64,000 nt of DNA from Candidatus Omnitrophota bacterium (GTDB lineage Bacteria; Omnitrophota; Gorgyraeia; Duberdicusellales; 4484-171), in contig JBAZGN010000003.1 of assembly GCA_041652815.1 (NCBI GenBank), positions 65,530 through 129,529 of the forward strand, given 5' to 3'. This document shows, in pieces, positions 8,729 through 64,000 of this stretch. Every line of letters begins with the position of its first letter. The stretch's first letter is position 1. Below the pieces are notes generated by a model. That model ran no database searches. It saw only the letters and a list, made by a program, of their open reading frames with translations, and was not told where the DNA came from. Both the position numbers and the translations under genes were made by a program.

Positions 8729-8738
8729 GCTAATAAAA

Positions 8739-14033: not shown

Positions 14034-14106
14034 GCCCACGTAGCTCAGTTGGTAGAGCAGCGCTTTCGTAAAGCGCAGGTCGGAGGTTCGACCCCTCTCG
14101 TGGGCT
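14034..14106 (+). tRNA. tRNA-Thr (anticodon CGT)
   Basis: Manual cloverleaf folding gives an acceptor stem GCCCACG/CGTGGGC, a D-arm GCTC-AGTTGGTA-GAGC and an anticodon stem GCGCT/AGCGC. The anticodon loop is TTCGTAA and the T-arm is GGAGG-TTCGACC-CCTCT. Total length is 73 nt with a T discriminator. Confidence 0.85.
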
Positions 14107-17255: not shown

Positions 17256-18214
17256 AAAACCTTACCGCATCATATTCACCTCATCTGCACACAAAAGAAT
17301 CTTTAGAAAAAATTATGTGGTTGGTATTTATAAGCTTGATACCTTCCGGTATGGCCGGGGTTTTAATCTTTGGGATGCGGGCTTTATGGGTGATATTCTT
17401 AGGCATAATCAGCGCCATAGCCACGGAAGCTTTAATACAACTGATGGCTAAAAAGAAAGTTGCTATATCAGATGGAAGTGCAGCGCTTACCGGCCTTTTG
17501 CTTAGTTATAATCTTCCAGTTTCCAGCCCCTGGTGGCTGACCGTAACTGGCTCCTTTATAGCAGTTGCTATCGGAAAACAAATATTTGGAGGATTAGGCC
17601 AGAATATTTTTAATCCTGCTTTGGTAGGTAGAGTATTTCTTATGGCATCATGGCCCAAATATATGACTAACTTTACCAGCCCGGTAAACACACAAGCATG
17701 GTTTAAATTTTCTGGCTATGATGCTATAACTGCAGCTACGCCTTTGACTTTGATCAAAGAAGGAAAACCCCTATTGGGCATCTCATATATGGATTTATTC
17801 TTGGGAAAACACGGCGGGTGTATTGGTGAGGTATGCATATTGGCCATACTCGCCGGAGCATTATTCCTTTTGATAAAGAAATATATTTCCTGGCATATAC
17901 CCATAACATACATACTAACGGTAGCCATATTTACCTGGATATTTGGCCCGAAAGGCGCATTTAGCGGAGATTGGCTTTTCGCTATTTTGTCAGGCGGTTT
18001 AATTCTGGGGGCGTTTTTTATGGCCACAGATTATGTTACTTCACCGTTAACCAGAAAAGGGCAACTCATTTTTGGCGTTGGTTGTGGCGTGCTTACCGCA
18101 GTTATCAGGCTTTGGGGAGGTTACCCTGAAGGTGCCTCTTACGCTATTTTAATAATGAACGCAACCACTCCTATTATTGACCGTTATACTAAAAATCGTA
18201 TTTTTGGAAAATGA
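17252..18214 (+). CDS. rnfD: Rnf complex subunit D
   Basis: 320-aa polytopic NqrB/RnfD-like protein with the N-terminal SPHLHT motif. Confidence 0.8.
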   Translation: MKNLTASYSPHLHTKESLEKIMWLVFISLIPSGMAGVLIFGMRALWVIFLGIISAIATEALIQLMAKKKVAISDGSAALTGLLLSYNLPVSSPWWLTVTGSFIAVAIGKQIFGGLGQNIFNPALVGRVFLMASWPKYMTNFTSPVNTQAWFKFSGYDAITAATPLTLIKEGKPLLGISYMDLFLGKHGGCIGEVCILAILAGALFLLIKKYISWHIPITYILTVAIFTWIFGPKGAFSGDWLFAILSGGLILGAFFMATDYVTSPLTRKGQLIFGVGCGVLTAVIRLWGGYPEGASYAILIMNATTPIIDRYTKNRIFGK

Positions 18215-18810
18215 AAATAAACACAAAAGAATTTATTAAAGGTCTGATTAAAGAGAACCCCACATTCGTTCTGGCGTTAGGCTTATGCCCAACATTAGCA
18301 GTTTCAACTTCGCTGAGCAACGGCCTTGGCATGGGGATAGCTGCTACTTTTGTTTTACTGGGTTCCAATATAATTATATCATTAATAAAAAACCTTGTGC
18401 CGAACAAAATAAGGATTCCTTGCTATATAGTTGTTATTGCAACATTTGTTACTATCGCGGAGCTTACCATGAAAGCTTATAGCCCCGCACTAAATCGCGC
18501 TTTGGGAATTTATGTTCCTTTAATTGTGGTAAATTGTATTGTCCTCGGACGCGCTGAAGCTTATGCCTCAAAAGCTTCTTTACTCAATTCAATATTAGAT
18601 GCTTTGGGCATGGGGCTGGGTTTTACCTTGGCATTACTTCTAATTTCCGGCATTCGTGAGATTCTCGGTTCAGGAACATTTTTCGGCCATACCTTGATAA
18701 AAGAGTATGAGCCAATATTTCTTTTTGCTTTGCCTTCAGGTGCACTTTTAGTTATCGGCCTTTTAATGTCTTTTTTTAATATTTTAAAAGAAAGGAAGCT
18801 AAAGCAATGA
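18211..18810 (+). CDS. rnfE: Rnf complex subunit E
   Basis: 199-aa NqrD/RnfE-like membrane protein, assigned as rnfE by its position before rnfA. Confidence 0.65.
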   Translation: MKINTKEFIKGLIKENPTFVLALGLCPTLAVSTSLSNGLGMGIAATFVLLGSNIIISLIKNLVPNKIRIPCYIVVIATFVTIAELTMKAYSPALNRALGIYVPLIVVNCIVLGRAEAYASKASLLNSILDALGMGLGFTLALLLISGIREILGSGTFFGHTLIKEYEPIFLFALPSGALLVIGLLMSFFNILKERKLKQ

Positions 18811-19415
18811 ATTTAGGCCAGTATCTTTCTATTTTTATTTCCGCGGTATTTGTCTATAACGTTATTCTTTCCCGCTTCTTAGGCCTCTGTTCATTCATAG
18901 CTATCTCTAAAGAAACCAAGCCAGCTTTTGCGATGAGCTTAGCGGTAATGTTTGTAACTACAATGTCATCAATAATTACCTGGCTTATTTATAAATTTTT
19001 ACTTATTCCTTTTAATATTACCTATTTACGTACGATATCTTTCATTTTAGTTATAGCGACATTCGTGCAACTAGTAGAAATGATTATCAAAAAAATCAGC
19101 CCGCCAATGTATAGATTTTTCGGCATATATTTGCCGCTCATTACGGTAAATTGCGCAGTGCTTGGAGTGGCAGTCCTTAACATTGATATGTTTTTTACAA
19201 ACGGCAAAGCTATGCCTGGTAGTTTTTATTATTCGGTTTTTCAAGGTATTTGCGTAGGGTTAGGCTATACGATAGCCATGGTTTTAATGTCCGGCATAAG
19301 GGAACGGCTTGAATTTTGCACTGTGCCTAAATGCGTTAAAGATTTTCCTCTTGGTTTTATTATTGCATCAATTATGAGCATGAGTTTTTTTGGTTTTAAT
19401 GGGTTTAGGTTCTGA
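18807..19415 (+). CDS. rnfA: Rnf complex subunit A
   Basis: 202-aa NqrE/RnfA-like membrane protein that is paralogous to the preceding gene. Confidence 0.65.
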   Translation: MNLGQYLSIFISAVFVYNVILSRFLGLCSFIAISKETKPAFAMSLAVMFVTTMSSIITWLIYKFLLIPFNITYLRTISFILVIATFVQLVEMIIKKISPPMYRFFGIYLPLITVNCAVLGVAVLNIDMFFTNGKAMPGSFYYSVFQGICVGLGYTIAMVLMSGIRERLEFCTVPKCVKDFPLGFIIASIMSMSFFGFNGFRF

Positions 19416-19503
19416 AATTTTATCCGCCTGCACCATTTGTTAGGATAGTAATAGCTATGACGGGCTTGCTCCTACGCTAAAGCTTCAGAGGACAAGCCGG
19501 CGG

Positions 19504-20373
19504 ATGTCACTGTATAGGCATGCTGGTTGGTGTTTCATTATGGAAATTTTAGTCCCTGTAATAATTTTGGCAAGTTTAGGTTTACTGTTTGGCGCAGGAC
19601 TCGCTCTTGCCTCTAGGTTTTTGTCAGTTAAAAGCAACCAGCGTCTTGACGCGATACACGGATTACTACCTGGTTCAAATTGTGGCGCTTGCGGAGGAGC
19701 CGGATGTTTTGGTTTCGCAGAGAGCCTGTTAAGCGGTAAGTTGCCACTTCAGGCGTGTAAAGTAAGCACTGAACAAACAAAAGAAAAAATAGCCACGCTA
19801 CTCGGCATAAAATTTGAAAAAACCGTAAAAACTGTTGCAGTTCTCCATTGCAATGGCGGCATAAGAGTAAAGGATAAATTTTTGTACCAGGGACTAGAGG
19901 ATTGCGTAGCTGCAAATTTGGTCTTAGAGGGGCAGAAAGAATGCCGCTTCGGTTGCCTTGGTTTTGGAACCTGTCAAAAAGCTTGTCCATTCGGGGCGAT
20001 AAAAATGACTAACGAACAATTGCCCGAGATTGATAGTACCAAATGCAAGGCGTGCGGTAAATGCGTAAGAGCGTGCCCAAAACATCTTTTTACCTTGATA
20101 CCAATAACGCAAGATATTTACATTGCTTGCAGCTCTCATGACATCGGTAAAAAAACAATCGAAGTTTGCCCTGTTGGCTGTATTGCTTGCGGAATATGCA
20201 CGAAAGTGAATGATTCACCATACTACCTGAAAGATAATCTTTCTCATATAGACTACAAGAAAGTGCTATCCAAGGAACCTCTGGAAGAAGGGCGTAAAAA
20301 ATGCCCTACTAAATGCATATTAGCAAGAAACCAGATAACAGATAACAGAGTACAGAAAACAGAGAAGAAGTAA
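19504..20373 (+). CDS. rnfB: Rnf complex subunit B (polyferredoxin)
   Basis: 289 aa with an N-terminal TM helix and several Cys clusters (CGACGGAGC, CRFGCLGFGTC, CKACGKCVRACP, CIACGICT). The last ~15 codons run into the E2 repeat element. Confidence 0.75.
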   Translation: MSLYRHAGWCFIMEILVPVIILASLGLLFGAGLALASRFLSVKSNQRLDAIHGLLPGSNCGACGGAGCFGFAESLLSGKLPLQACKVSTEQTKEKIATLLGIKFEKTVKTVAVLHCNGGIRVKDKFLYQGLEDCVAANLVLEGQKECRFGCLGFGTCQKACPFGAIKMTNEQLPEIDSTKCKACGKCVRACPKHLFTLIPITQDIYIACSSHDIGKKTIEVCPVGCIACGICTKVNDSPYYLKDNLSHIDYKKVLSKEPLEEGRKKCPTKCILARNQITDNRVQKTEKK

Positions 20374-20419: not shown

Positions 20420-21025
20420 ATGAATATAGCAATTTTAGCTTCAGGAAACGGAAGTAACTTTGAGGCGATAGTGAAAGCCGCAAAACGCGGTTACATTAAA
20501 GCCTTTATCAAGGTTCTAATTACCGACAAAAGCAATGCATATGTTCGGCAGCGTGCCAAACGCAACAAAATAAAAGATATACTTATCGACCCTTCAAAAT
20601 TTAAATCCAGGCTTGAGTTTGACGAAGAAGTGATTAAGGTCTTAGAAAAAGAAAAAATAGACTTGGTTGTTTTGGCCGGATTTATGCGGATACTTTCTGC
20701 GAAATTTGTAAAAAGGTTCAAAAACAGAATTCTTAATATTCATCCGGCGCTACTGCCTGCTTTTAAGGGAGAGAATGCTATTCGCAGAGCGTTACAACAT
20801 AACTGCAAGGTAACCGGTGTTACTGTTCATTTCGTAGACGAAAAAGTAGATAACGGGCCGATAATATTACAACAAGCCATAGAAATAAAAAGAGGTGAAA
20901 CGCTCGAAAGGCTTGAAGAAAGAATACACAATCTGGAACACAAATTATACCCCTTAGCTGTTAAACTCTTCACGGAAAGACGTATCAAAATAAAAAATAG
21001 AAATGTGGAAATTGAGCCCTTGTAG
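20420..21025 (+). CDS. purN: Phosphoribosylglycinamide formyltransferase
   Basis: 201 aa with an N-terminal ILASGNGSN stretch and the catalytic stretch NIHPALLPAFKG. Confidence 0.85.
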   Translation: MNIAILASGNGSNFEAIVKAAKRGYIKAFIKVLITDKSNAYVRQRAKRNKIKDILIDPSKFKSRLEFDEEVIKVLEKEKIDLVVLAGFMRILSAKFVKRFKNRILNIHPALLPAFKGENAIRRALQHNCKVTGVTVHFVDEKVDNGPIILQQAIEIKRGETLERLEERIHNLEHKLYPLAVKLFTERRIKIKNRNVEIEPL

Positions 21026-52532: not shown

Positions 52533-53541
52533 AAAAATATTAATAATGCGTACGGATAGATTAGGGGATGTAATTCTCTCTACGCCCGCGATAGCAAACT
52601 TACGTAAATTCTATCCCGATAGCTATATTGCCTTTCTCTGCAGGCCATACACAAAAGAAGTTATAGAAGGCAATCCCCATCTAGATGAAATTATTATCTA
52701 TGACAAAAATAAAGAACATAAAAGCATTTTTGCATCAATAAAATTCTGCCTTGCCTTGCGTAAAAAAAAGTTTGATACTGTTTTTATCTTAAATCCAAAT
52801 AACCGCTCAAACATAATTGCATTATTTGCTGGTATTCCAGAGCGTATTGGGTTAAACCGGAAAATGGGTAGGCTGTTGACTCATCCTATAGAAGATAAGA
52901 AACATGAAGGAAAAAAACACGAGCTGGAATATACTTTGGACATCCTAAAAGAAGCCGGGGTTACAATTACAGAGAAACACACTTATTTTCCGATAAAAAA
53001 AGAATCGGAGGAACGGATAGAGGATTTGCTCGTAACGCATGGGATAAAAAATAATTCATTTTTAGTGATTCATCCTTCTGCCTCATGCCCGTCAAAACGC
53101 TGGCCGCAGGATTACTTCGTAAAACTGATAAGATTAATAAACGAAAGAACAAACTTAAGAATAGTTTTAATAAGTGCAGAGAATGAAAAGAAATTTGCTG
53201 ATAGCCTGGTAAAAGAAAAAAATACAATAGACCTAAGAGGGATTTTAAGCATTTCGGATATAGGTGCGCTTCTTAAACGCTCAAAACTATTCATATCAAA
53301 CGATTCAGGGCCTGTGCATATTGCGGCAAGCTTAAATTGCCCTGTGATTTCTATCTTCGGAAGGAATGACCCAGGCCTTTCACCTGTACGTTGGAGGCCG
53401 CTTGGTGAAAAATCATTTTATATCCATAAAGGAAATTCTTGCAAAAATTGCCTAGCTCATAATTGCGTTTTGGGTTTTCTGTGCCTTAAATCCATAACAC
53501 CGGAAGAAGTATTTGCTTTGGCCTTAAAAATATTAGAATAA
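52516..53541 (+). CDS. Glycosyltransferase family 9 (LPS heptosyltransferase-like)
   Basis: 341 aa with an N-terminal ILIMRTDRLGDVILSTPAIANLRKFYP and a C-terminal FISNDSGPVHIAASLNCPVISIFG. Confidence 0.7.
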   Translation: MEQIRKKILIMRTDRLGDVILSTPAIANLRKFYPDSYIAFLCRPYTKEVIEGNPHLDEIIIYDKNKEHKSIFASIKFCLALRKKKFDTVFILNPNNRSNIIALFAGIPERIGLNRKMGRLLTHPIEDKKHEGKKHELEYTLDILKEAGVTITEKHTYFPIKKESEERIEDLLVTHGIKNNSFLVIHPSASCPSKRWPQDYFVKLIRLINERTNLRIVLISAENEKKFADSLVKEKNTIDLRGILSISDIGALLKRSKLFISNDSGPVHIAASLNCPVISIFGRNDPGLSPVRWRPLGEKSFYIHKGNSCKNCLAHNCVLGFLCLKSITPEEVFALALKILE

Positions 53542-53598
53542 AGTTTGGAATCAAAAATCTAATGCGTCATAAAAAAACTGCTATAATATGCTTATAAG

Positions 53599-54786
53599 AT
53601 GAAAAAGGTTAAGCGGATTTTAATTATATCTTCCGACAAACACTTAAGCGATATTCTTCATTTCTGTTTCGACGGCTGGGGATACGAAGTTTTTGTACAC
53701 GAACCGAACATAGACGATATAATTGTAATTAAAAAAATATCACCTGACGCGATAGTAATAGACGTACATTCTGCAACCAAATCGCATCTTGAAATATGCA
53801 GGCTCCTTAAAGAAGATTTCATTACCGCTCTTATACCTATAATTGCTTTAATAAATAAAAGGCAGCTTAGAGAACAGCTTCTCACCTTAAAACAAGGAGT
53901 CGATGATTACTTGATAAAGCCTCCCGACCCACTGGACTTAAGAACACGCATAGAAATCGCGATAAAACGCTCGCAGTATAGCTTTTATTCAAGCCCTTTA
54001 ACCGGGCTTCCGGGTGCGCGGCTCATCGAAGATATCGTGAAAGAAAGAATCGAAAAAAATACTCCTTTTTCTTTCGCCCATATAGACATCGATAACTTTA
54101 AATCCTTTAATGATGTTTACGGCTACATAAAAGGCGACAAAGCCCTTATGCAAACTGCCTACATACTTTACAGCGTAATCAAGAAAATCGGAAATGCTGA
54201 TGATTTTATGGGCCATATAGGCGGTGATGATTTTGTTTTTATCACAACTCCCGATAAACATAAGGAAATTTGCCGCTATTTTATTTTTATGTTTGATAAC
54301 CTTATACCGTACCACTACTCAAAAAAAGATAGGGAACAGAACTTCGTAATTGCACGTAACCGTGCAAAACAGATAAGAAAAATGCCCCTTATGAGTGTAA
54401 CAATAGCTGTAGTGAATAAAAATAAACCAAATGAATTCAAGAATATAGTAGAAATCAACGAGAGGATAGCAGAGGTAAAAAAATATTTGAAAACTGTTCC
54501 GGGCAGCAAGTTTATGGCAGACAGGCGTACTTCTACCAATGACAAAGAAGACCTGCAGGTTTATAAAAAAGAGGACTTCTTTATAAACTCATACAAACCG
54601 ATAGGCCAAATCCTAATCGAACAACATAAGATAACCGGGGCACAGCTGGAAGAAGCCCTTACGGCAAATTGGAAGAGAGGAATAATACTGGGAGAAATAC
54701 TTCGAGATTGCGGCTTTGTAACCGAAGAGGACATTGAAAAAGCTTTAAAGATACAAAAAGAAATTCTTGAAAAATCGCGCAGCTGA
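53599..54786 (+). CDS. Response-regulator receiver domain / GGDEF-family domain (motif GGDDF) / C-terminal MshEN-like (T2SSE_N) c-di-GMP-binding domain
   Basis: 395 aa with an N-terminal REC-like domain (ILIISSDKH...AIVIDVHS...LIKP). The central domain has DIDNFKSFND and HIGGDDFVFI, which is GGDDF in place of GG[DE]EF. The C-terminus carries two 24-aa motifs of the MshEN consensus, IGQILIEQHKITGAQLEEALTAN and ILGEILRDCGFVTEEDIEKALKIQ. Confidence 0.65.
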   Translation: MKKVKRILIISSDKHLSDILHFCFDGWGYEVFVHEPNIDDIIVIKKISPDAIVIDVHSATKSHLEICRLLKEDFITALIPIIALINKRQLREQLLTLKQGVDDYLIKPPDPLDLRTRIEIAIKRSQYSFYSSPLTGLPGARLIEDIVKERIEKNTPFSFAHIDIDNFKSFNDVYGYIKGDKALMQTAYILYSVIKKIGNADDFMGHIGGDDFVFITTPDKHKEICRYFIFMFDNLIPYHYSKKDREQNFVIARNRAKQIRKMPLMSVTIAVVNKNKPNEFKNIVEINERIAEVKKYLKTVPGSKFMADRRTSTNDKEDLQVYKKEDFFINSYKPIGQILIEQHKITGAQLEEALTANWKRGIILGEILRDCGFVTEEDIEKALKIQKEILEKSRS

Positions 54787-54810
54787 CCTATAAAACTTTC
54801 CGTTTTTGTC

Positions 54811-54838
54811 TTGACAGGAAAAGGTTTATTGCTATACT
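54811..54838 (+). promoter_or_regulatory. Putative sigma70 promoter of the hydrogenase cluster (TTGACA-N16-TATACT)
   Basis: TTGACA at 54811-54816 and TATACT at 54833-54838. Confidence 0.5.
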
Positions 54839-54870
54839 ATCTAAATCCATTTTTTTTATTTTGAAATTGA

Positions 54871-54888
54871 TTGTGAAAAAATTCACAA
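54871..54888 (+). promoter_or_regulatory. Perfect CRP/FNR-family operator (TTGTGA-N6-TCACAA) immediately upstream of the first hydrogenase-cluster gene
   Basis: The sequence TTGTGAaaaaatTCACAA is a perfect 18-bp palindrome of the TGTGA-N6-TCACA type. It is centred about 40 nt downstream of the predicted -10 element and 16 nt before the ATG at 54896. Confidence 0.55.
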
Positions 54889-54895
54889 AAGACCA

Positions 54896-55936
54896 ATGAT
54901 CAACAAATATTTATATATAAAAAACAACAATTTTTTAAGGCTTCTGGATAATTTATCTGCGGATTATAAAGTATTTACACCACAAGAAACACGAAAAAAC
55001 TATTTCTGGAAAGAATATAAAGGCGCCTTTGAATTCTCTAAATACCGCTCAGTAACGAACCTCAGGCAATTCTTTACGCCTGCCGTAGAACAAATCGATA
55101 ACTATTTTGGCTCGAATAAAGCTCAAGAAAGAAAACCCATCTGCATCGTTGGCGCAAAGGCATGCGACCTCGGGAATGCCCTTAAAATACACGATTATGT
55201 TTTCCTTGAAGGAGACGTTGATAGTGCCTATAAACAACTAAGAGAAAAAAATCTCATAATTTCCAGTGACTGTACTGCCTTTAAGGAAACTTGCTTCTGC
55301 CTTGCCTTGGGTAATATGCCATACCCGGAAGAATTATTCGATTTAAACATTTCATGCGTAAACGATGGTTACCTTGTGGAAATCGGTTCTAAAAAAGGAG
55401 AAGGTACTGTAGCTTCAAATAAAAGCCTTTTTGAAACAGTAAATGACACAACACTTAAAGAACGTGAGAATAACCGAAATAGCGTAACGAAAGAATTCCG
55501 CTGTCAAATAGAACCCCTGGAATTTCCGAAAGATTCATTGCTTTATAATCTTATAAAAAACGGTTACGGCGATAAATTATGGCCTGAAGAAGCTTTAAAA
55601 TGCGTTGAATGCGGCGCTTGCATTATGAACTGCCCAACCTGCCATTGTTTTCTTTTATTTGATACAAAAGATAAGGACGGATATTTCAAGGGAAGGGTTT
55701 GGGACGGTTGCCAATATAAAAATTTCACACGCGTTGCCGGAGGCGCTAATGCGCTTAGGCTACGCGAACAAAGACTGCGTAACCGTTATATCAAAAAATT
55801 CGAATTTTTCCCTGAAAGAATAAAATTATATGCCTGCACGGGATGCGGTAGGTGCGTTGAAGGCTGCCCTGCGAAAATAGATATACGAAAAATTTTTAAG
55901 CTACTCAACGAAAATCAAAATAGCGCTAAAAAATGA
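54896..55936 (+). CDS. Iron-sulfur oxidoreductase subunit, AsrA / sulfhydrogenase-beta (HydB)-like
   Basis: 346 aa with C-terminal 4Fe-4S motifs CVECGACIMNCPTCHC and CTGCGRCVEGCP. Its size and cysteine pattern match AsrA/HydB-type subunits. Confidence 0.55.
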   Translation: MINKYLYIKNNNFLRLLDNLSADYKVFTPQETRKNYFWKEYKGAFEFSKYRSVTNLRQFFTPAVEQIDNYFGSNKAQERKPICIVGAKACDLGNALKIHDYVFLEGDVDSAYKQLREKNLIISSDCTAFKETCFCLALGNMPYPEELFDLNISCVNDGYLVEIGSKKGEGTVASNKSLFETVNDTTLKERENNRNSVTKEFRCQIEPLEFPKDSLLYNLIKNGYGDKLWPEEALKCVECGACIMNCPTCHCFLLFDTKDKDGYFKGRVWDGCQYKNFTRVAGGANALRLREQRLRNRYIKKFEFFPERIKLYACTGCGRCVEGCPAKIDIRKIFKLLNENQNSAKK

Positions 55937-56745
55937 GCATATATCTACCGAATAAAGCAACAATTACCAATATAATCGAGGAAACCCCGACAATAAAAAC
56001 TTTTGTCTTTAAGCCTGTTGATTCTTTTTCTTTTAAAACAGGCCAATTTATTGAATTAAGCTATCCGGGTATAGGCGAAGCGCCCTTTACGCCGTCTTCT
56101 GACCCAAATAATAAAAAAGCTTTCGAGGTAACCATAATGAAGGTAGGCAAAGTAACGGAACTGTTTCATAAAGCAAAAATAGGGGATTGTTTAGGCATGC
56201 GCGGGCCTTACGGAAACGGCTATCCGGTTGATAGTTTTAAAAACAAAGAACTTTTGATAGTTGGCGGAGGCGTGGGCTTAGCACCACTGCGCTCATTGAT
56301 TTATGCCCTTTACAACCGCATAAATGATTTTAAAAAAATAGTTATATGCTACGGGGCACGCAGCCCTCAGGATATTGTATATAAATATCTTCTTGAAGAG
56401 TTTAAAAAACCAAAAAATGTAGAATTCAGGCTTACTGTCGATAGAGCCGACAACACCTGGAAAGGAAACGTAGGTATTGTGACAACTCTTTTAGAAAAAT
56501 TGCCTTTGGATATTAAACAAGCCACGGGTATAGTTTGCGGGCCGCCGATTATGATGAAATTCGCAAGCCTTAAACTCTTAGAACTGGGTTTTTCTCCAAA
56601 AAACATACACTTATCCATGGAAAAGAACATGAGTTGCGGCTTGGGTAAATGCGGCCATTGCCGGCTTGGCAAATACTATATATGTAAAGACGGCCCTGTT
56701 TTTATATTCGATGATATAAAAGATATGTGGGACATTTGGGATTAG
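55933..56745 (+). CDS. FAD/NAD(P)-binding oxidoreductase subunit, AsrB / sulfhydrogenase-gamma (HydG) / PyrK-like, with a C-terminal 2Fe-2S site
   Basis: 270 aa with an FNR-like beta-barrel (GQFIELSYPG), an NAD(P)-binding GGGVGLAPL and a C-terminal CGLGKCGHC cluster. Confidence 0.65.
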   Translation: MSIYLPNKATITNIIEETPTIKTFVFKPVDSFSFKTGQFIELSYPGIGEAPFTPSSDPNNKKAFEVTIMKVGKVTELFHKAKIGDCLGMRGPYGNGYPVDSFKNKELLIVGGGVGLAPLRSLIYALYNRINDFKKIVICYGARSPQDIVYKYLLEEFKKPKNVEFRLTVDRADNTWKGNVGIVTTLLEKLPLDIKQATGIVCGPPIMMKFASLKLLELGFSPKNIHLSMEKNMSCGLGKCGHCRLGKYYICKDGPVFIFDDIKDMWDIWD

Positions 56746-56820
56746 AAAAAAGGCTAAGGTTAAATCTGAAGTTGAGTTAAAAATAGCGCCTTAACCTAAA
56801 CCTTAACTTCAACCTTTTTA
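56746..56820. repeat. GGTTAAG/CTTAACC-type inverted repeat element, possibly related to the one at 1786-1852
   Basis: The sequence aaaaaaGGCTAAGGTTAAatctGAAGTTGAGTTAA...CCTTAACCTAAACCTTAACTTCAACC forms an imperfect hairpin. It shares the k-mers TCAACCTT, TAAACCT and AAAAAGG with the 1786-1852 element. Confidence 0.35.
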
Positions 56821-56825
56821 AAGAA

Positions 56826-57320
56826 ATGAAAAGAATATTGCTAGATTTAGAGAAATGCGATAACTGCCCTGAGTGTGTCGTTAAATGCAGTTATATTTAT
56901 CATCCCCAAAATAAAGGAATAACCTCCTTGAGGGAATTCGCAACCTTTGCCGTTGTCTGCCACAGGTGTGAAGAAGCCCCTTGCATTAATTCGTGCTACC
57001 ACAATGCGCTGGCGAAGGACGAAAATAAAATAATAAAACGGGCAAAATTTTTATGCACCTCCTGCAAAACCTGTACACATGCTTGCCCTTTTGGAGTAAT
57101 ATTCGATGATTTCCTGGATTTCCTTGATTCAAAATGTGATTTTTGTATTGGTAGAAATAAACATCTGTGCATCGAAACTTGCACACATAAAGCATTAGAA
57201 ATCCTGGACATCGACAAAGATGATATAGCTCAGAATACTTACGTTATCTCTGATTATCTTGCAATTAAGCATCCGAAAAAATGGTTCCTTGATGATAAAG
57301 TGCTCTATAAGAAAAAATAA
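56826..57320 (+). CDS. 4Fe-4S ferredoxin-like electron-transfer subunit
   Basis: 164 aa with several Cys motifs (CDNCPECVVKC, CHRCEEAPCINSC, CTSCKTCTHACP, CDFCIGRNKHLCIETC). Confidence 0.6.
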   Translation: MKRILLDLEKCDNCPECVVKCSYIYHPQNKGITSLREFATFAVVCHRCEEAPCINSCYHNALAKDENKIIKRAKFLCTSCKTCTHACPFGVIFDDFLDFLDSKCDFCIGRNKHLCIETCTHKALEILDIDKDDIAQNTYVISDYLAIKHPKKWFLDDKVLYKKK

Positions 57321-57322
57321 TA

Positions 57323-58252
57323 ATGATAAAGATGATTTTACAGTATTTAATTTTCCCTGGCCTGGCATTTTGTTTCTTTATGGGCGCTATGGGTTTCTGG
57401 CTTGAAAGAAAACTAACTGCCCGCTTCCAGTATCGAGTGGGCCCGCCCTGGTATCAGAATTTTATTGACGTAATGAAATTATTTCTAAAAGAAACAATGA
57501 TACCGCGCGATGCGACAAAAACTATTTTTATAGCTTCACCAATTATAAGTTTATCGGCAGTAATTTTAGTAAGTATAATACTGGCAAATAATTACTTTCT
57601 AAACATAAGTTTTATCGGCGATGTTATCGTAATTTTATATTTACTGCTCATACCATCGCTTTTCATTATTCTCGGCGCACTTTCCTCAAAAAACCCCTTA
57701 GCGCTTGTGGGGGCCGCAAGAGAAACAAAACTTATGCTTGCTTACGAATTTGTATTTATCGCAAGCTTAATAATTGCGATAATTAAATCGGGTAATTCAA
57801 TTATGATGGCGGACATAATCGGTATCCAGATACTAAATAAACCTAATATAGCCAGTTTCTCAGGCGCAATCGCCTTTGTGCTGGCTATTTTTTATGCTCA
57901 GGCAAAATTAGGTATAGTGCCGTTTGATATGGCTGAAGCAGAGCAGGAAATTATGGCAGGTACTGTAATTGAGTATTCCGGGCCGCTTCTCGGCTTTTAT
58001 AAAATATCAAAATTAATGCTTTATTTTTCCCTGCCGTTATTTATAATTTCCTTATTCGTAAAAATTTCTGTAGAATCTGCATTTTTAAGATATTTAATAT
58101 TTTTTGCAGAATATATACTTATCATTTTTATTATGTCTGTAATTAAAAATATAAATCCAAGGCTGCGGATAAAAGATGCTTTGGGATTTTTTTGGTTTTT
58201 ACTTTTTCCTCTTGGAATTTTGGGTATAATTTTGGCGCAATTCGGACTATAA
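57323..58252 (+). CDS. Membrane subunit of an energy-converting hydrogenase, NuoH/HycD/EchB family
   Basis: 309 aa, polytopic, with a NuoH-like motif near the N-terminus (WLERKLTARFQYRVGP). Confidence 0.7.
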   Translation: MIKMILQYLIFPGLAFCFFMGAMGFWLERKLTARFQYRVGPPWYQNFIDVMKLFLKETMIPRDATKTIFIASPIISLSAVILVSIILANNYFLNISFIGDVIVILYLLLIPSLFIILGALSSKNPLALVGAARETKLMLAYEFVFIASLIIAIIKSGNSIMMADIIGIQILNKPNIASFSGAIAFVLAIFYAQAKLGIVPFDMAEAEQEIMAGTVIEYSGPLLGFYKISKLMLYFSLPLFIISLFVKISVESAFLRYLIFFAEYILIIFIMSVIKNINPRLRIKDALGFFWFLLFPLGILGIILAQFGL

Positions 58253-58686
58253 TGAAACTAAAAGAAAAGATACTTACAAAATCGCTGTGGGTGTATCATT
58301 TAAGTGCAGGCTCGTGCAACAATTGCGATATAGAAATACTGGACTGCCTTACCCCGCGATTTGATATCGAACGTTTCGGAATGCAGCTGGTAGGCAGCAT
58401 TCGCCACGCAGACGTTTTACTTATAACCGGCGCGATGAATAAAAAATCGGCAAAAATCCTTAAAAGCCTCTATGAACAGGCGCCAAAACCATTGTTCGTT
58501 GCTGCTGTCGGGACTTGCCCATGCTCTCAGCATATGTTTAAAGGAAGTTACCCTATGCTTAGTGCCCTTGATGAAATAATTCCTGTTGACGTATACATTC
58601 CGGGATGTCCTCCAAAGCCCGAAGCTATAATTGCCGGAATTGCCAAGTTAATTAATAAACTTACTGCAAAAGATAAAAAAGGATAG
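58252..58686 (+). CDS. [NiFe]-hydrogenase small subunit, NuoB/HycG/EchC family
   Basis: Four proximal-cluster Cys are present (GSCNNC ... GTCPCS ... PGCPP). The start is set at 58252 (TAATG overlap with the upstream stop) rather than the 58192 of the ORF track. Confidence 0.75.
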   Translation: MKLKEKILTKSLWVYHLSAGSCNNCDIEILDCLTPRFDIERFGMQLVGSIRHADVLLITGAMNKKSAKILKSLYEQAPKPLFVAAVGTCPCSQHMFKGSYPMLSALDEIIPVDVYIPGCPPKPEAIIAGIAKLINKLTAKDKKG

Positions 58687-58688
58687 AA

Positions 58689-59123
58689 ATGATAAAAGAC
58701 GAAGTTAAAAAAATATTGGCAGCAAAGATAAAAAATTGGGAAGTAAAAAACCCTAAAAGAATATATTTTGAGGTAGATAAAAAAGATATAAAGGAAATTG
58801 CCCGTAGCCTTTACAAAGATTTTAACATGAGGCTCTCAACTATTACCGGTATAGATAACGAAAAGAATTTTGAATTAATTTTCCATTTTGGCTTAGATAA
58901 AACAGGGGAACTTTTTAATGTAAGAACTTTTATCAACGATAAGGATAACCCGGAGATAGATTCTCTTGTTGATCTATTCAAATCATCCGACTGGGTAGAA
59001 AGAGAAATTCATGAGCTTCTCGGCATAAATTTTAAAGGCCATCCCAACTTAAAACATCTATTGCTTGATGACGACTGGCCAAAAGACAGTTACCCCTTAA
59101 GGAAGGATTATAAAAATGAGTGA
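58689..59123 (+). CDS. Hydrogenase subunit of the NuoC (30 kDa) family
   Basis: 144-aa NuoC/EchD-like protein (LSTITGID, HPNLKHLLLDDDWPKD) located between the small and large subunit genes. Confidence 0.6.
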   Translation: MIKDEVKKILAAKIKNWEVKNPKRIYFEVDKKDIKEIARSLYKDFNMRLSTITGIDNEKNFELIFHFGLDKTGELFNVRTFINDKDNPEIDSLVDLFKSSDWVEREIHELLGINFKGHPNLKHLLLDDDWPKDSYPLRKDYKNE

Positions 59124-60303
59124 GAAAAAAGTAATACCTATAGGGCCGTATCATCCCTTACAGGAAGAACCAGAATTTTTCCGCCTGATAGTTGAAGGCG
59201 AACGCGTAACCGAACTTGAAATAGAAATTGGCTATAATCACCGTGGCATTGAAAAAATCGCCGAATCAAAACATTGGGACCAGGTACCGTTTGCGGTAGA
59301 GCGAATCTGTGGTATATGTTCGAGTTCTCACCCTTTTGCTTATTGCCTTGCAGTTGAAGACTTGCTCGGCATAACTGTGCCGGAACGCGCTAATTATATA
59401 AGAATGATAATCGATGAACTCCAGCGTATACATTCACACCTGCTTTGGCTGGGGCTTGCCGGACACTTTATCGGTTACAACACTGTCTGGATGTGGGCAT
59501 GGAAAGCAAGGGAACCAATTTTAGATTTATTTGAATTAATCTGCGGTAACCGCCAAAATTACGCGATGATGAAAATAGGCGGAGTAAGAAGGGATATAAA
59601 AGAAGAAACCTATTCTGTCATCAAAAAAACCATCAAAGAATTGTATCCGGTGCTTAATATGTTTAAAAAAGTAGTCAATGACGACCCGGTGATTGGCAAA
59701 CGCACAAAAGGCGTAGGTATTTTAAAAAAAGAGGAAGGCATATCTCTTGGCGTAGTTGGCCCGACAGCACGCGCAAGCGCAATTGACGTAGATGTGCGCC
59801 GTGATGATGCCTATGCGTTTTATAATAATATTAATTGGTCGGTCATTGTAAGAAACGAAGGGGATATTTACGCAAAAATTATAGTAAGAGTGCTTGAGAT
59901 GTTTGAGTCTTGCTCAATCATCGAACAATGCCTCGAAAAAATTACTAAGGGCCCGATAGAAGTTGAAGTAAGAGATATACCCGAAGGCGAAGGCATAGGA
60001 CGGGTGGAGGCCCCGCGCGGCGAATGCTTCCATTATGTTCGAAGCGACGGGACTAACCGGCCGGTAAGGCATAAAATAAGGGCGCCTTCCTTTGTGAATG
60101 TTCCAAGCAATATCGTTACTGTACCGGGCTATACTATTTCAGATGCTGCATTGACACTCGCGGCAGTTGACCCGTGTTACTGCTGCACTGAAAGATGCGC
60201 AGTGTTTACAAAGAACGGGCAAAAGGTTTTTACCGGAGACGATCTTATCAAACTATCCATAGAAAAAACCGCAAAGCTTAAAAATGAATATGGCCTTGAA
60301 TAA
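59116..60303 (+). CDS. Group 4 (energy-converting, membrane-bound) [NiFe]-hydrogenase large subunit, NuoD/HycE/EchE family
   Basis: 395 aa with the N-terminal Ni-binding motif RICGICSSSH (RxCGxCxxxH) and the C-terminal DPCYCCTER (DPCxxCxxR). Both Cys pairs are retained, unlike in complex I NuoD. Confidence 0.8.
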   Translation: MSEKKVIPIGPYHPLQEEPEFFRLIVEGERVTELEIEIGYNHRGIEKIAESKHWDQVPFAVERICGICSSSHPFAYCLAVEDLLGITVPERANYIRMIIDELQRIHSHLLWLGLAGHFIGYNTVWMWAWKAREPILDLFELICGNRQNYAMMKIGGVRRDIKEETYSVIKKTIKELYPVLNMFKKVVNDDPVIGKRTKGVGILKKEEGISLGVVGPTARASAIDVDVRRDDAYAFYNNINWSVIVRNEGDIYAKIIVRVLEMFESCSIIEQCLEKITKGPIEVEVRDIPEGEGIGRVEAPRGECFHYVRSDGTNRPVRHKIRAPSFVNVPSNIVTVPGYTISDAALTLAAVDPCYCCTERCAVFTKNGQKVFTGDDLIKLSIEKTAKLKNEYGLE

Positions 60304-61915
60304 TCTATTTATATTTGATTCTCTTTCGAAACTAGTGGGTTTTTTTGTTATATTTTTTAGCGTCCTTATGGCTATTTATTCTGCGGGATTTCTCAAAAGC
60401 AGAAGGATAACTTATTATATCTGGTTTTTCCTGACGATGATAGCTTCACTGGGAGTTGTTTTTTCGGACAACATCATACTTATTGCTGTCTTCTGGGGTT
60501 TTCTCGGTTTAAGTTTATTTAAATTAATAAATCTCTACGATGACGAAAACGCATCTAGTATAGCTAAAAAAACTTTTATTATCATCGGCGCAACCGACGG
60601 ATTCTTATTGTTTGGATTTTTACTTTATAACTTTTTGACATCTTCTATGAGCTTAACCGCGAATACACTGATTATAAACAATAATCTTTCTTTTGTTTCT
60701 TTTATTTTTATAGCGATAGCCTGTTTCGCCAAGGCAGGCTGCATGCCAATGCATACCTGGATTCCCGAAACCGCCAAATGCGCACCTTTACCTGTTGTAG
60801 CATATTTGCCGGCTTCATTGGATAAACTTTTAGGAATATATTTGCTGGTACGCATAGTAAAAAATTCCTTTTTCCTCGATACAACGGCAAAATTTACGCT
60901 TATAATCGCCGGAGCAGCTACCGTAATCTTTGCCGTTATGATGGCGCTTATTCAGCATGATATCAAAAAGCTACTAGGCTACCATGCGATAAGCCAAGTC
61001 GGTTATATGGTGCTTGGGCTAGGCTGCGCAACACCTATAGGCATTGCCGCAGGCCTATATCATATGATTAATAATGCTATATATAAATGCTGTTTGTTCT
61101 TAGGCGCGGGAAATGTAGAAAACCAAACCGGCACAACCAGGCTTCATGATTTAGGCGGTTTAGCTCGCTTTATGCCTATAACCTTTATCACATTTTTAGT
61201 AGCTGCATTTTCAATATCCGGCATTCCGCCGCTTAACGGGTTCGTTTCGAAATGGATGATCTACCAGGCGCTTAGCGAATTTATGAATTCTCTCAGCTCT
61301 TATCCTTTAAAAATAATCGTCGCCTTAGCATTGCTAAGCGCTCTCATAGGGAGCGGCCTTACGTTGGCTTCCTTCTTAAAAGTAATTTCCAGCGTATTTT
61401 TTGGAAATGCCAGAAAACGCGCGAAAGAAAGCAGTTTCCTGCTTTTGCTTCCGGTTATAATATTAGCTTTTTTATGCATTATTTTCGGAGTGTTTGCCTA
61501 TTCAACCATACTTAAAGTTATCGAAGAAGCTATAGGAAGTTTTAATATGGTGGGTTTATGGCAACCTGTAGGCGCTACAGCTTTTATGGCGCTTGGCATA
61601 ATTATCGGCCTGATTGTTTTTAAATTTTCTTCGAAAAATCTGCGCATCAGCCCGACGTATACGGGAGGAGAAGAATCAAACCCTCACGAAGAAGCAAAAA
61701 TAGAGGATTTCTATGCAACAATCAGTGATATACCATTTTTGAAGAAAATCTATGCTCTTGCCGAAGGTAAAGTATTCGATATATACGAGCAATTAAAAAA
61801 AATAGCCTTTATTTTGTCCACTTTGTTAAAAAGATTGCACAATGGAGTGCTGCCGACATACTTAATCTGGTGTCTTTTAGGCATGATGGGATTATTTTTT
61901 GTATTTTTCAAATAA
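60284..61915 (+). CDS. NuoL/MrpA/MbhH-like antiporter-type membrane subunit
   Basis: 543 aa with about 14 TM helices and a conserved Nuo L/M/N-family core (HTWIPETAKCAPLPVVAYL). Confidence 0.7.
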   Translation: MNMALNNLFIFDSLSKLVGFFVIFFSVLMAIYSAGFLKSRRITYYIWFFLTMIASLGVVFSDNIILIAVFWGFLGLSLFKLINLYDDENASSIAKKTFIIIGATDGFLLFGFLLYNFLTSSMSLTANTLIINNNLSFVSFIFIAIACFAKAGCMPMHTWIPETAKCAPLPVVAYLPASLDKLLGIYLLVRIVKNSFFLDTTAKFTLIIAGAATVIFAVMMALIQHDIKKLLGYHAISQVGYMVLGLGCATPIGIAAGLYHMINNAIYKCCLFLGAGNVENQTGTTRLHDLGGLARFMPITFITFLVAAFSISGIPPLNGFVSKWMIYQALSEFMNSLSSYPLKIIVALALLSALIGSGLTLASFLKVISSVFFGNARKRAKESSFLLLLPVIILAFLCIIFGVFAYSTILKVIEEAIGSFNMVGLWQPVGATAFMALGIIIGLIVFKFSSKNLRISPTYTGGEESNPHEEAKIEDFYATISDIPFLKKIYALAEGKVFDIYEQLKKIAFILSTLLKRLHNGVLPTYLIWCLLGMMGLFFVFFK

Positions 61916-62456
61916 TATGATTGAAATAAATTTACTCTTAATATTTATAATTATTGCGGCTATAGCTGCAGTTAAAATGAAAGACCTGCTTGGTTCGGTT
62001 GTAGCAGTGGGTGTAGCCGGGTTTGGTTTAGTAGTTAGCTTTTTATCCCTTAAAGCACCTGACTTGGCAATTACGCAGCTTGTAGTTGAAATTTTATGCC
62101 TGATTATACTTATCCGTGCAACCATAAAAGTAGACCTTCCTTTTTCCACATCCGGCAGATGGTTAGTAAACACGACAGCCGCTATAGCATTTCTTGTTAT
62201 GTTTCTCATCTATGGCTATAAAGCTATTTTGAACTTGCCGTATTTTGGAAACCCTACGATGACAACATCGGTTTTCTATTTTAATAAAACTATGGAAAGT
62301 GTCCATGCAACTAATGTCGTATCGGCAATAAACCTGAATTTCCGCGCCTACGATACATTAGGCGAAGCCACGGTATTATTTGCCGCAGCTGTAGGGATTA
62401 TGGTAATAATGCGCAAAAAAGGCAGACTCACTAACGAAAACAAAAATGATGAATAA
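61899..62456 (+). CDS. Mrp/Mbh antiporter-module small subunit (DUF4040 plus MnhB-related, MbhD/E-like)
   Basis: 185 aa. The C-terminal part has the MnhB-related motif NLNFRAYDTLGEATVLFAAAVGI. Confidence 0.5.
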   Translation: MYFSNNMIEINLLLIFIIIAAIAAVKMKDLLGSVVAVGVAGFGLVVSFLSLKAPDLAITQLVVEILCLIILIRATIKVDLPFSTSGRWLVNTTAAIAFLVMFLIYGYKAILNLPYFGNPTMTTSVFYFNKTMESVHATNVVSAINLNFRAYDTLGEATVLFAAAVGIMVIMRKKGRLTNENKNDE

Positions 62457-62916
62457 AAATAACGGAATGAGCCTGATAGTTAAGACAGTAACGCGCCTGC
62501 TTGTAGGTTTTATACTGCTTTACGGAATCTACATAGTTTTACACGGGCATATTTCCCCGGGCGGAGGCTTTGCCGGCGGTTTTATTATAGCTTTATCGTA
62601 CATTCTTTTCATGCTCGCTTTCGGCAAAGAAGAGATACTGAAAAGAATACCTCAACCAATGATATCGTTTTTGGAAAGCCTTGGAGCGCTTTTATTTCTC
62701 GTAATCGCTGTGTTTGGATTTTTTGGCGGATATTTCTTCGCAAACTGGCTGCCTAAGGGGGCGCCCTTTAAGCTGCTTTCTGCCGGCACTATTCCTATTT
62801 CAAATATTGCGCTTGCTTTACTTGAAGTTTCTCTTGGGTTATTTGGAATATTTTTAGTATTGGTATTATTAAAATTTACACCTCTTAAAGAGGGGAAAAT
62901 AAAGGACAATAAATAA
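62446..62916 (+). CDS. Mrp/Mbh antiporter-module subunit, MnhB-like
   Basis: 156 aa with the MnhB signature motif HGHISPGGGFAGGF. Confidence 0.55.
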   Translation: MMNKNNGMSLIVKTVTRLLVGFILLYGIYIVLHGHISPGGGFAGGFIIALSYILFMLAFGKEEILKRIPQPMISFLESLGALLFLVIAVFGFFGGYFFANWLPKGAPFKLLSAGTIPISNIALALLEVSLGLFGIFLVLVLLKFTPLKEGKIKDNK

Positions 62917-62917
62917 C

Positions 62918-63256
62918 ATGCTTACTTACTTTTTATGCTTAGTACTGTTTTGCGTAGGGCTATATGCGATTTTACGTAAGCGTAACATCATAAAGATAAT
63001 AATCGGTATAGTAATCTGCGAGTATGCGATTAATCTTTTCCTTATCCTTTTCGGCTACAAAATGAACGGCCGTTCCCCTTTATATTCACCAGACCAGGAA
63101 ATTGTTAGTATGGTTGACCCGCTTCCGCAGGCACTGGCAATGACGGCTATAGTTATCAGCTTGGCGACAACGGCGCTCTTGGTGGCTATTGCAATAAGAA
63201 TATACGAAAAATACGGGACTTTCGATATTACAAAAATAAATAAACTGAAAGGTTAA
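62918..63256 (+). CDS. Mrp/Mbh antiporter-module subunit, MnhC/NuoK-like
   Basis: 112 aa with 3 TM helices, positioned between the MnhB-like and MnhD-like genes. Confidence 0.5.
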   Translation: MLTYFLCLVLFCVGLYAILRKRNIIKIIIGIVICEYAINLFLILFGYKMNGRSPLYSPDQEIVSMVDPLPQALAMTAIVISLATTALLVAIAIRIYEKYGTFDITKINKLKG

Positions 63257-63257
63257 A

Positions 63258-64000
63258 ATGCAATTTATTCCCTTATTCATTATTTTGCCTCTTGGCGCTG
63301 CCTTCCTTATTTCGCTTGCCGGAAAAAATAAGACAAAGTTTTGCGATGTTTTTTCGGTTATCATTACTTTTGCTCTTTTTATTCTTTCGCTGTTTTTTGT
63401 TTTTAAAGCAAAAATGTGCGCTACTGCGCTAATTTATAAAGTTGGAGGTTGGGGATTACCGGGCGGAATTATTCTGGTACTGGATGGCTTAAGCATTTTC
63501 ATGCTTACGATAATAAACTTTATTGCTTTTATAATTAATATTTTTTCTATTAATTACATGAAAAGGTTCAGCGCAAAACATAGATTCTACACTCTTTTCA
63601 TGCTTATGATCGCAGGTATGAATGGGGTGGCTATGACCGGTGATATTTTTAATCTTTTTGTCTTTTATGAGATAGCTTCGATAGCAAGCTACGCGCTGGT
63701 AGCATTTGGCACAGAAAAAGAAGAGCTTGAAGCTTCCTTAAAGTATACAATCATAGGTGTTGTTGGCTCTTTATTCATACTTCTCGGCATAGCTTTCCTG
63801 TATGCTTATACCTCTACGCTGAATATGGCAGAAATCGCATCTCGCTTAGCGCAAAACGGCATAAATTCCGCTGTTATTTTCGTAAGTATTTTGTTTATCG
63901 CGGGTTTCGGCATCAAATCCGCAATAGTACCTTTTCATGCCTGGCTACCGGATGCTCATCCTGCTGCTCCTGCACCTATTTCAGCAATGCTTTCGGGAAT
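63258..64000 (+). CDS. MnhD/NuoM/NuoN-like antiporter membrane subunit (5' part only; continues beyond the window)
   Basis: The ORF starts at ATG 63258 and stays open to the end of the window. It is polytopic with the NuoN/MrpD-type core AWLPDAHPAAPAPISAMLSG. Confidence 0.6.
   Translation, partial: MQFIPLFIILPLGAAFLISLAGKNKTKFCDVFSVIITFALFILSLFFVFKAKMCATALIYKVGGWGLPGGIILVLDGLSIFMLTIINFIAFIINIFSINYMKRFSAKHRFYTLFMLMIAGMNGVAMTGDIFNLFVFYEIASIASYALVAFGTEKEELEASLKYTIIGVVGSLFILLGIAFLYAYTSTLNMAEIASRLAQNGINSAVIFVSILFIAGFGIKSAIVPFHAWLPDAHPAAPAPISAMLSG

Follow-up and report, generated by a model that had tools for sequence, protein, structure and literature searches.

A hun-type membrane-bound [NiFe]-hydrogenase operon of Omnitrophota with a putative Rex operator and a plausible link to pyridine nucleotides

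We analysed a 64,000-nucleotide stretch of a Candidatus Omnitrophota genome (GenBank assembly GCA_041652815.1, contig JBAZGN010000003.1, positions 65,530 to 129,529, forward strand; hereafter "the window"), whose last 9 kb carry a cluster of co-directional hydrogenase genes. Judged by its genes, their order and their cysteine motifs, this cluster is the hun operon, predicted to encode a group-4 [NiFe]-hydrogenase that is bound to the membrane and has an arm of the Mrp type for ion translocation, here in Omnitrophota. The operon as such is already known, and our additions to it are a putative Rex operator at its 5' end, a fusion of a HAD phosphatase with a HycI-type protease at its 3' end, and an argument for NAD(P)H as the electron donor. 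It is the identity of the donor, together with the Rex operator, that makes the cluster of interest.

The window ends inside the operon, and we therefore read the remainder from ENA contig ERZ27247363:k141_883937 (21.5 kb; L001 below), which was identified as the same DNA by exact-protein look-up and in which a position plus 50988 gives the window position. The genes and sites, with domain assignments from Pfam and NCBIfam and lengths in amino acids (aa), are the following:

54811-54838, + strand: promoter-like site that agrees with the consensus at 11 of 12 positions (TTGACA-16 nt-TATACT and an upstream TG)
54871-54888: putative Rex operator, the perfect palindrome TTGTGAAAAAATTCACAA (TTGTGAA-AAAA-TTCACAA), between the promoter-like site and hunA
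54896-55936, + strand: hunA, AsrA/HydB-like Fe-S subunit, 346 aa (Fer4_22, Pfam)
55933-56745, + strand: hunB, AsrB/HydG-like flavoprotein, 270 aa (FAD_binding_6, NAD_binding_1, DHODB_Fe-S_bind)
56826-57320, + strand: hunC, HycB/CooF-type polyferredoxin, 164 aa, 16 Cys corresponding to four [4Fe-4S] motifs (Fer4_11)
57323-58252, + strand: hunD, NuoH-like membrane subunit (PF00146, E 1e-55)
58252-58686, + strand: hunE, NuoB-like small subunit with the proximal-cluster cysteines (PF01058, E 2e-28)
58689-59123, + strand: hunF, NuoC-like subunit (PF00329, E 6e-31)
59116-60303, + strand: hunG, NuoD-like [NiFe] large subunit (PF00346, PF00374)
60284/60290-61915, + strand: hunH, NuoL/MrpA-like antiporter subunit (PF00361, E 7e-52)
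61917-62456, + strand: hunI, fused MbhD and MbhE-like subunit (PF13244, PF20501)
62446-62916, + strand: hunJ, MnhB-like subunit (PF04039, E 3e-25)
62918-63256, + strand: hunK, MnhC/NuoK-like subunit (PF00420)
63258-64000, + strand: hunL, antiporter subunit of the MrpD type, truncated where the window stops (500 aa at L001:12270-13772)
L001:13762-16663, past the window end: hunM (MnhE), hunN (MrpF), hunO (MrpG), hunP (NuoI/HycF-like) and the protease fusion

The whole cluster comprises 16 co-directional genes, of which 11 are complete and one is partial in the window, with four more beyond it. An earlier note on this DNA, made from the letters alone, had the content, the + strand and the location of the genes right, whereas its count of eleven was wrong, as its own list sums to twelve. 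Its expectation that the cluster runs on beyond 64000 was correct: L001 adds the rest of the MrpD-like gene, MnhE, MrpF, MrpG and a 200-aa NuoI/HycF-like protein with 2x[4Fe-4S], which is HunP and the product of the last gene of the cluster. The reading frames of hunA and hunB overlap by 4 nt, and the start of hunH is placed at 9302 by the gene call on L001, equivalent to 60290 in the window. HunE scores 143 bits against the NuoB subfamily model NF005012 (cut-off 116) and possesses two cysteines in addition to the four canonical ones, while HunK reaches at most 84 bits against the NCBIfam models for subunit C of Na+/H+ antiporters, under their cut-offs.

The 16-subunit Hun supercomplex, hunA-P, was defined by Glass et al. 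in a study of Atribacteria-dominated methane hydrate sediments (bioRxiv 10.1101/536078). In their description HunAB are AsrAB-like, AsrC is missing and HunH-O are Mrp-like, and the operon is carried by Atribacteria, Firmicutes, Omnitrophica, Elusimicrobia, Bacteroidetes and the cultured Kosmotoga (10.1101/536078). The order found here, AsrA-like, AsrB-like, Fe-S, NuoH, NuoB, NuoC, NuoD, eight Mrp/Nuo-like genes and a NuoI-like gene, is the Hun order. Both systems share the same 16 genes, the CGIC-CYCC signature, AsrAB-like HunAB, the lack of AsrC and the NuoI-like last gene, and we see no structural difference in the window copy. Because every published Hun feature was matched, we regard the cluster as a copy of the hun operon; its closest homologues are from Omnitrophota.

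Relatives have been described under several names. HunG is assigned to group 4g by HydDB, yet it is distant from other 4g sequences and bears the signature CGIC-CYCC (10.1101/536078). Hydrogenases listed as "group 4g, Mrp-linked" have been reported for Omnitrophota by Williams et al. (PMC8542988) and Seymour et al. (PMC10066038), and the 4g label used here rests on these published HydDB calls for the Mrp-linked enzymes of Omnitrophota and for HunG. In Saganbacteria, Matheus Carnevali et al. described an "enigmatic" group-4 hydrogenase with Mrp-like subunits, cooF, asrA and asrB, whose nearest relatives are from Zixibacteria and Omnitrophica (PMC6349859). Elsewhere the Hun operon appears as the "Mbh-Mrp-oxidoreductase type" or as group 4g, again with Omnitrophica included. 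A literature search yielded nothing usable on the hydrogenase of Ca. Velamenicoccus. The view of the earlier note that the module combination is unusual does not stand, since it has been published and named Hun, with Omnitrophica among its carriers, and relatives of the large subunit are present in at least 549 species-level genomes.

These relatives were collected by scanning an alignment of the large subunit against the GTDB representatives (one genome per species). The best 80 loci, with identities of 63-94%, were analysed; they are mostly from Omnitrophota, with a small number under the labels Clostridia, Elusimicrobiota/Endomicrobia, NPL-UPA2 or Patescibacteria. For the reverse test an alignment of the AsrA-like protein was run against metagenome contigs, which gave another 80 loci (39-66% identity). 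Each of the genome loci was annotated by phmmer with the 16 Hun proteins as queries.

The large subunit has the hallmarks of a true hydrogenase. HunG contains both Ni-Fe cysteine pairs predicted for it, in the motifs RICGICSSSH and DPCYCCTER, and an alignment of 15 homologues, which share 68-82% of their residues with the window protein, shows no variation at Cys-65, Cys-68, Cys-354, Tyr-355, Cys-356 and Cys-357. Compared with all PDB sequences, it is closest to MbhL (297 bits) and HycE (250 bits), followed by NuoD/Nqo4 (at most 221 bits) and MBS subunit L (174 bits). A tail of 35 residues follows DPCYCCTER and aligns with the C-terminal tail of HycE. The loss of the Ni-Fe cysteines by which Mbx/MBS, Ehr and complex I are recognised is not seen in HunG, and, as in group 4, the NuoD-like large subunit with its L1/L2 cysteine pairs is accompanied by NuoB-, NuoC-, NuoI-, NuoH- and NuoL-like partners. 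With these cysteines present and invariant, and MbhL and HycE as the best solved relatives, the assignment to the group-4 [NiFe]-hydrogenases rather than to a complex-I-like or Mbx-type relic is upheld. A group 3b sulfhydrogenase was considered and rejected: the scores are 56 bits for ShyA and 24 bits for HydA against cut-offs of 700 and 880, and the small subunit is of the NuoB type.

The membrane-bound hydrogenase (MBH) of Pyrococcus furiosus (group 4d, PDB-code: 6cfw), which has the closest solved large subunit, shares with Hun the NuoB/C/D/H/I-like core and an Mrp-derived ion module. It differs by having neither HunAB nor HunC, its electrons coming straight from ferredoxin, and by an L2 motif of the form CxxC that lacks the extra cysteine of Hun. 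Its gene order is inverted relative to hun, with the mrp-like genes leading mbhA-N.

The two leading genes are of the HydB/HydG (AsrA/AsrB) type, as had been proposed. The sole solved relative of HunA is the β subunit of sulfhydrogenase I (9nez_B, E 1e-40), which matches over the full length; 15 cysteines are invariant in 20 family members, and the cysteines of HunA align with those of the β subunit. HunB is closest to the γ subunit of the same enzyme (9nez_C, E 2e-54), again matched over its full length; PyrK and NfnA come next. Across 122 HunB sequences with overall identities of just 50-93%, conservation is at least 95% in the motifs GEAPFTPSS, GGGVGLAPL and CGPPIMMKF and in the cysteine motif, which correspond to FAD, NAD(P)H and [2Fe-2S] binding. 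In the NCBIfam comparison HunA scores 164 bits for ShyB, 146 for HydB and 125 for AsrA (TIGR02910, cut-off 323), all far under the cut-offs, and HunB stays below that of TIGR02911 (243 bits, cut-off 288.6). Neither asrC nor another sirohaem gene was found in the locus or in the 64-kb window. An AsrABC sulfite reductase was consequently rejected, as both scores lie under the TIGR02910 and TIGR02911 cut-offs and AsrC is absent at the locus and in the window. In the soluble sulfhydrogenase I of P. furiosus (group 3b, PDB-codes: 9nez/9nf0) the β and γ subunits, corresponding to HunA and HunB, form an NADPH-binding FAD/[2Fe-2S]/[4Fe-4S] module. There the module docks on the δ and α subunits of a cytoplasmic group-3 enzyme, whereas in Hun the pair precedes a membrane-bound group-4 enzyme and no δ-type subunit is present.

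Do hunA and hunB belong to the hydrogenase at all, or do they form a separate system, akin to sulfite or polysulfide reductases, that just happens to adjoin it? The names of their best NCBIfam models, which include AsrA, AsrB and sulfhydrogenase subunits, and the 80-nt gap that separates hunB from hunC could be taken to favour the latter. All scores against the Asr, Hyd and Shy equivalog models are nevertheless under the cut-offs, and the window contains no asrC or other catalytic partner. Of the genome loci, 59 extend at least 4.4 kb upstream, and in 58 of these hunAB lie directly ahead of hunC. The reverse test agrees: next to HunA-like genes of the metagenome loci, hunB follows in 56 of 57 cases, hunC in 48 of 49, and hunG is found within 5 kb in 37 of 37. 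The gene order predicted to recur in related genomes thus does so in both directions and in several phyla. Between hunB and hunC the distance is 13 nt or less in most loci, and the largest value in the 160 loci examined is 503 nt; the 80 nt in the window show no terminator-like site and fold no better than shuffled sequence (z = -0.75). Moreover, a conserved operator is located 5' of hunA and none before hunC. With no terminator or stable hairpin before 56826, this synteny and this position of the operator, hunAB are part of the hydrogenase operon, as the earlier note had it, and the reading as an unrelated system is effectively refuted; we give it next to no credence.

The other end of the operon is similarly constant. 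The NuoI-like gene is the last one in 46 of 46 loci with enough downstream DNA, and the full Mrp block is present in 42 of these. The remaining four are short forms without the Mrp block in which hunAB are retained. Short operons, consisting of hunA-H and hunP without MbhD/E-MnhB-MnhC-MrpD-MnhE-MrpF-MrpG, were noted in the loci L038, L046, L050, L062, L068 and L160. Because these short operons keep HunAB, the HunAB head is retained independently of the Mrp-type Na-module.

The putative operator at 54871-54888 ends 7 nt before the start codon of hunA and is identical to the Rex operator TTGTGAAW4TTCACAA that was defined by experiment (PMC2883068). It is the only perfect match to a Rex site in the 64-kb window. 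In 1.26 Mb of genome loci 25 Rex sites with at most one mismatch were found, and all 25 are situated at the 5' ends of hun operons: 24 of them lie 2-70 nt 5' of hunA, and the 25th lies 5' of a rex gene that precedes hunA (locus L071). Further Rex sites occupy the same position in the metagenome loci. A rex gene (PF06971 and PF02629) is immediately upstream of hunA in eight loci. In the locus that lacks hunAB (L006, see below), no Rex site was found. The same operator before a hydrogenase operon is known from the Rex regulons of anaerobes such as Caldicellulosiruptor bescii; a further shared trait is a rex gene that is frequently a neighbour and apparently controls itself, as in L071. Our literature search found no report of a Rex site for Hun or for Omnitrophota. 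Taken together, these observations suggest that the Hun operon is Rex-controlled. The conserved site sets hunA as the point where the operon begins for regulation, and it implies that expression would respond to the NADH/NAD+ ratio.

How might electrons reach the Ni-Fe site? The best solved relatives of HunC are 9mqx_E, HycB3/4 of the hydrogen-dependent CO2 reductase (HDCR) and HycB of formate hydrogenlyase, and HunP resembles HycF/MbhN. In the formate hydrogenlyase of E. coli (group 4a, PDB-code: 7z0s) and in the Mrp-linked formate- or CO-dependent hydrogenases (group 4b), a HycB/CooF-type four-cluster protein and a HycF-type protein form the wire from a soluble dehydrogenase to the small and large subunits, and the matching parts of Hun would do likewise. 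Formate hydrogenlyase also resembles Hun in the C-terminal tail of HycE and in a HycI-type protease. The difference lies at the entry, where these enzymes possess the molybdopterin protein FdhF or the Ni-containing carbon monoxide dehydrogenase CooS and Hun has a flavo-Fe-S pair of the HydB/HydG type. With HunAB in place of FdhF or CooS, the substrate would be NAD(P)H instead of formate or CO.

We therefore propose, as the best explanation and on balance a somewhat probable one, that Hun is an NAD(P)H-linked, Rex-controlled and ion-gradient-coupled enzyme that would make H2. The FAD of HunB would exchange hydride with NAD(P)H, and the electrons would pass from the [2Fe-2S] cluster of HunB through the clusters of HunA to HunC, HunP, HunE and the Ni-Fe site, where protons would be reduced to H2; HunAB would thereby occupy the position of FdhF in formate hydrogenlyase or of CooS in the CO-dependent hydrogenases. 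A rising NADH/NAD+ ratio would make Rex leave the operator, such that the complex is made when reductant must go out as H2. Synthesis upon accumulation of NADH, as suggested by Rex control, favours the evolution of H2 as the chief direction. Except where H2 is scarce, the transfer from NAD(P)H to H2 is uphill and would oblige the ion-translocating arm to spend a gradient. The NuoH-, NuoL- and Mrp-like subunits would probably let a Na+/H+ gradient, for instance one that Rnf could build with reduced ferredoxin, drive this step; the reverse direction would conserve energy. The Rnf cluster noted earlier at 15460-20373 (+ strand) is borne out by Pfam.

The pyridine-nucleotide link itself is plausible, and it is a reasonable assumption because the FAD and NAD motifs of HunB are conserved; it also fits the Rex control. 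A3 hydrogenases are of an NAD(P)-linked type. In Omnitrophota of Ace Lake each genome carries one hydrogenase, which is of type 3b, 3d, A3 or 4g (PMC8542988), and by the HydDB definitions the alternatives 3b and 3d to 4g are NAD(P)-linked. We are more tentative about the complete picture, in which Hun is a Rex-controlled NAD(P)H:proton oxidoreductase whose uphill NADH-to-H2 step is pushed by a Na+/H+ gradient (e.g. Rnf-built) and not a look-alike of the ferredoxin-dependent MBH; as a whole this remains somewhat doubtful.

The disposal of NADH electrons as H2 by fermenting and syntrophic anaerobes is a standing bioenergetic problem, to which soluble electron-confurcating hydrogenases are the accepted answer. 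Hun is common in uncultured phyla of the subsurface and of freshwater, and annotations routinely give it as a ferredoxin-dependent "Mbh" or as "group 4g". If HunAB binds NAD(P)H, Hun would add a new kind of H2 formation, NADH-dependent and coupled to the membrane (or of H2-dependent NAD+ reduction), and the balance of redox and ions in metabolic models of Omnitrophota, Atribacteria and others would have to be changed. In the complete picture outlined above it would be a chemiosmotic counterpart to the soluble electron-confurcating enzymes, widespread in Omnitrophota, Atribacteria, Elusimicrobia and Kosmotoga.

Several points weigh against an NAD(P)H-driven Hun. NADH-to-H2 transfer is unfavourable under standard conditions, and the ion-driven step is purely what we infer to balance it. 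The sequence of HunB, compared with the sulfhydrogenase γ subunit, offers no reliable determinant for a preference between NADH and NADPH. Rex sites with at most one mismatch are confined to 24 of the 59 genome loci, and the 64-kb window itself is devoid of a rex gene. The promoter-like site at 54811-54838 is a consensus match, and such sites are no commoner in this region than in shuffled sequence. Rex control is in any case no proof of NADH as a substrate, because the membrane-bound [NiFe] hydrogenase that Rex represses in C. bescii depends on ferredoxin (PMC6391272). Our literature search retrieved no biochemical follow-up of Hun and no data on Hun from Kosmotoga.

One alternative is a ferredoxin-dependent Hun, in which reduced ferredoxin would deliver electrons to HunABC or HunP for H2 formation, H+ or Na+ would be pumped as in Pyrococcus MBH, and the NAD(P)-type domain of HunB would not be the physiological entry point. 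Ferredoxin was predicted as the donor to HunABC by Glass et al. (10.1101/536078), and HydDB describes 4g as putatively ferredoxin-coupled. Such an enzyme is thermodynamically straightforward, is compatible with Rex control as for the Ech of C. bescii (PMC6391272), and agrees with MbhL being the closest solved large subunit. A further argument comes from a complete Omnitrophota chromosome (L006, CP070807.1, ~7250-11185), the sole locus with hunC-P in the absence of hunAB: the genes for ArgRS and RecJ stand at the position of hunAB, followed by a 480-nt gap. As L006 presumably functions without hunAB, the core would seem able to take electrons in another way. Finally, in six loci (L064, L065, L069, L072, L078 and L079) the gene of a 2x[4Fe-4S] ferredoxin with a NIL domain is immediately 5' of hunA, and this ferredoxin could be a dedicated partner of Hun in those six lineages.

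Ferredoxin dependence leaves unexplained, however, why a flavoprotein with FAD and NAD(P)H motifs heads the operon in 58 of 59 loci, while MBH works without a module of the HunAB type. The characterised relatives of HunB in the PDB, namely sulfhydrogenase γ, PyrK, NfnA, NqrF and cytochrome b5 reductase, all use pyridine nucleotides. Salmonella AsrAB, too, is NADH-linked, unlike the ferredoxin donation to AsrAB that has been stated. Because the nucleotide and flavin motifs of HunB are strictly conserved and hunAB are nearly universal, we rank the NAD(P)H-linked enzyme above one that uses ferredoxin alone, which we consider unlikely.

A third possibility is that Hun uses two substrates or runs in reverse, joining three pools: ferredoxin by way of HunC and HunP, NAD(P)(H) by way of HunAB, and H2. 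It might either form H2 from NADH together with reduced ferredoxin, or take up H2, reduce NAD(P)+ and build an ion gradient for acetogenic growth. Acetogenic Omnitrophota do carry 4g hydrogenases together with Wood-Ljungdahl genes (PMC10066038), and an Rnf complex is encoded in the same window. Electron transfer from H2 to NAD+ would be exergonic and could power one ion-translocation step. Some lineages carry an inserted molybdopterin oxidoreductase between hunB and hunC (PMC6349859; 10.1101/536078), showing that the HunAB end acts like an exchangeable junction for redox partners; this insert, known from Saganbacteria and some Hun metagenome-assembled genomes, is absent in all 160 loci. On the other side, no known bifurcating cofactor is present, the HunB-type FAD being a simple, non-bifurcating site in NfnAB. 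Furthermore, Rex-repressed genes are normally those of NADH consumers, so the operator argues against a main role in producing NADH. We judge this third possibility quite improbable and retain NAD(P)H-linked H2 formation as the preferred explanation.

As to the Rnf cluster itself, rnfC seems to be followed by an FMN_bind (RnfG-like) gene, then by rnfD, by two membrane genes of the Rnf-Nqr family and finally by rnfB, which corresponds to C-G-D-E/A-A/E-B compared with the common C-D-G-E-A-B. A Rex-like site with two mismatches at 20706-20723, downstream of rnfB, is probably due to chance.

Beyond the window, an open reading frame at L001:15566-16663 (which would be 66554-67651 in window positions) starts 15 nt after hunP and encodes an N-terminal HAD phosphatase fused to a C-terminal HycI-type protease, the latter with 58 bits for TIGR00072 (cut-off 47). 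A protease gene is found 3' of hunP in 17 of 44 loci, as the HAD fusion in the five closest (L001, L002, L003, L006 and L007) and as a stand-alone gene in twelve. Its presence fits the conserved 35-residue tail of HunG that aligns with that of HycE, and the HycI-type protease probably removes this tail during maturation. In another locus (L034:16022-16696) the open reading frame directly after hunP shows, when read by eye, a HypC-like N-terminus (MCYAIPGKIIDI...) joined to an apparent radical-SAM CxxxCxxC region. About 15 loci have at this place a gene of ~400 aa for a multi-pass membrane transporter, which looks like a member of the major facilitator superfamily on reading its sequence and is probably unrelated.

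Upstream of hunA we also considered a recurrent gene of ~150 aa as a maturation protease and rejected it, as it is YqeY in 14 loci and HycI is found there solely in L013. A search of the window's open reading frames for rex, hycI, hypA, the NIL-domain ferredoxin, yqeY and second hun copies gave none, save weak Fe-S cross-matches. Two loci, L013 (~1-5000) and L046 (upstream of 5777), have another hydrogenase cluster directly upstream of hun; the one in L013, where genes of the AsrA and AsrB type are joined by those of a large subunit and of a HycI-type protease, looks like group 3b, and both kinds of β/γ pair can accordingly share one genome. A different arrangement is seen in L084 (5551-11105), where a HunA-like gene is followed directly by genes of the MnhE, MrpG, MnhB, MnhC and MrpD type and both hunB and hunC are absent; the locus is cut by the contig end, and an open reading frame of 1294 aa lies upstream of the HunA-like gene.

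The promoter-like site 5' of the operator, whose -35 hexamer starts at 54811, is the best sigma-70-type match within 53000-64000. The gene just 5' of it (53599-54786, + strand) encodes a response-regulator receiver with a GGDEF diguanylate cyclase, and the C-terminus of the protein (residues 334-386) contains an MshE-like motif for binding of cyclic di-GMP (NF053729). This receiver-GGDEF gene is kept upstream of hunA solely in the closest relatives (L002, L003 and L082). A tRNA-Thr (CGT) at 14034-14106 (+ strand) is the sole match to Rfam or ARAGORN in the 64-kb window.

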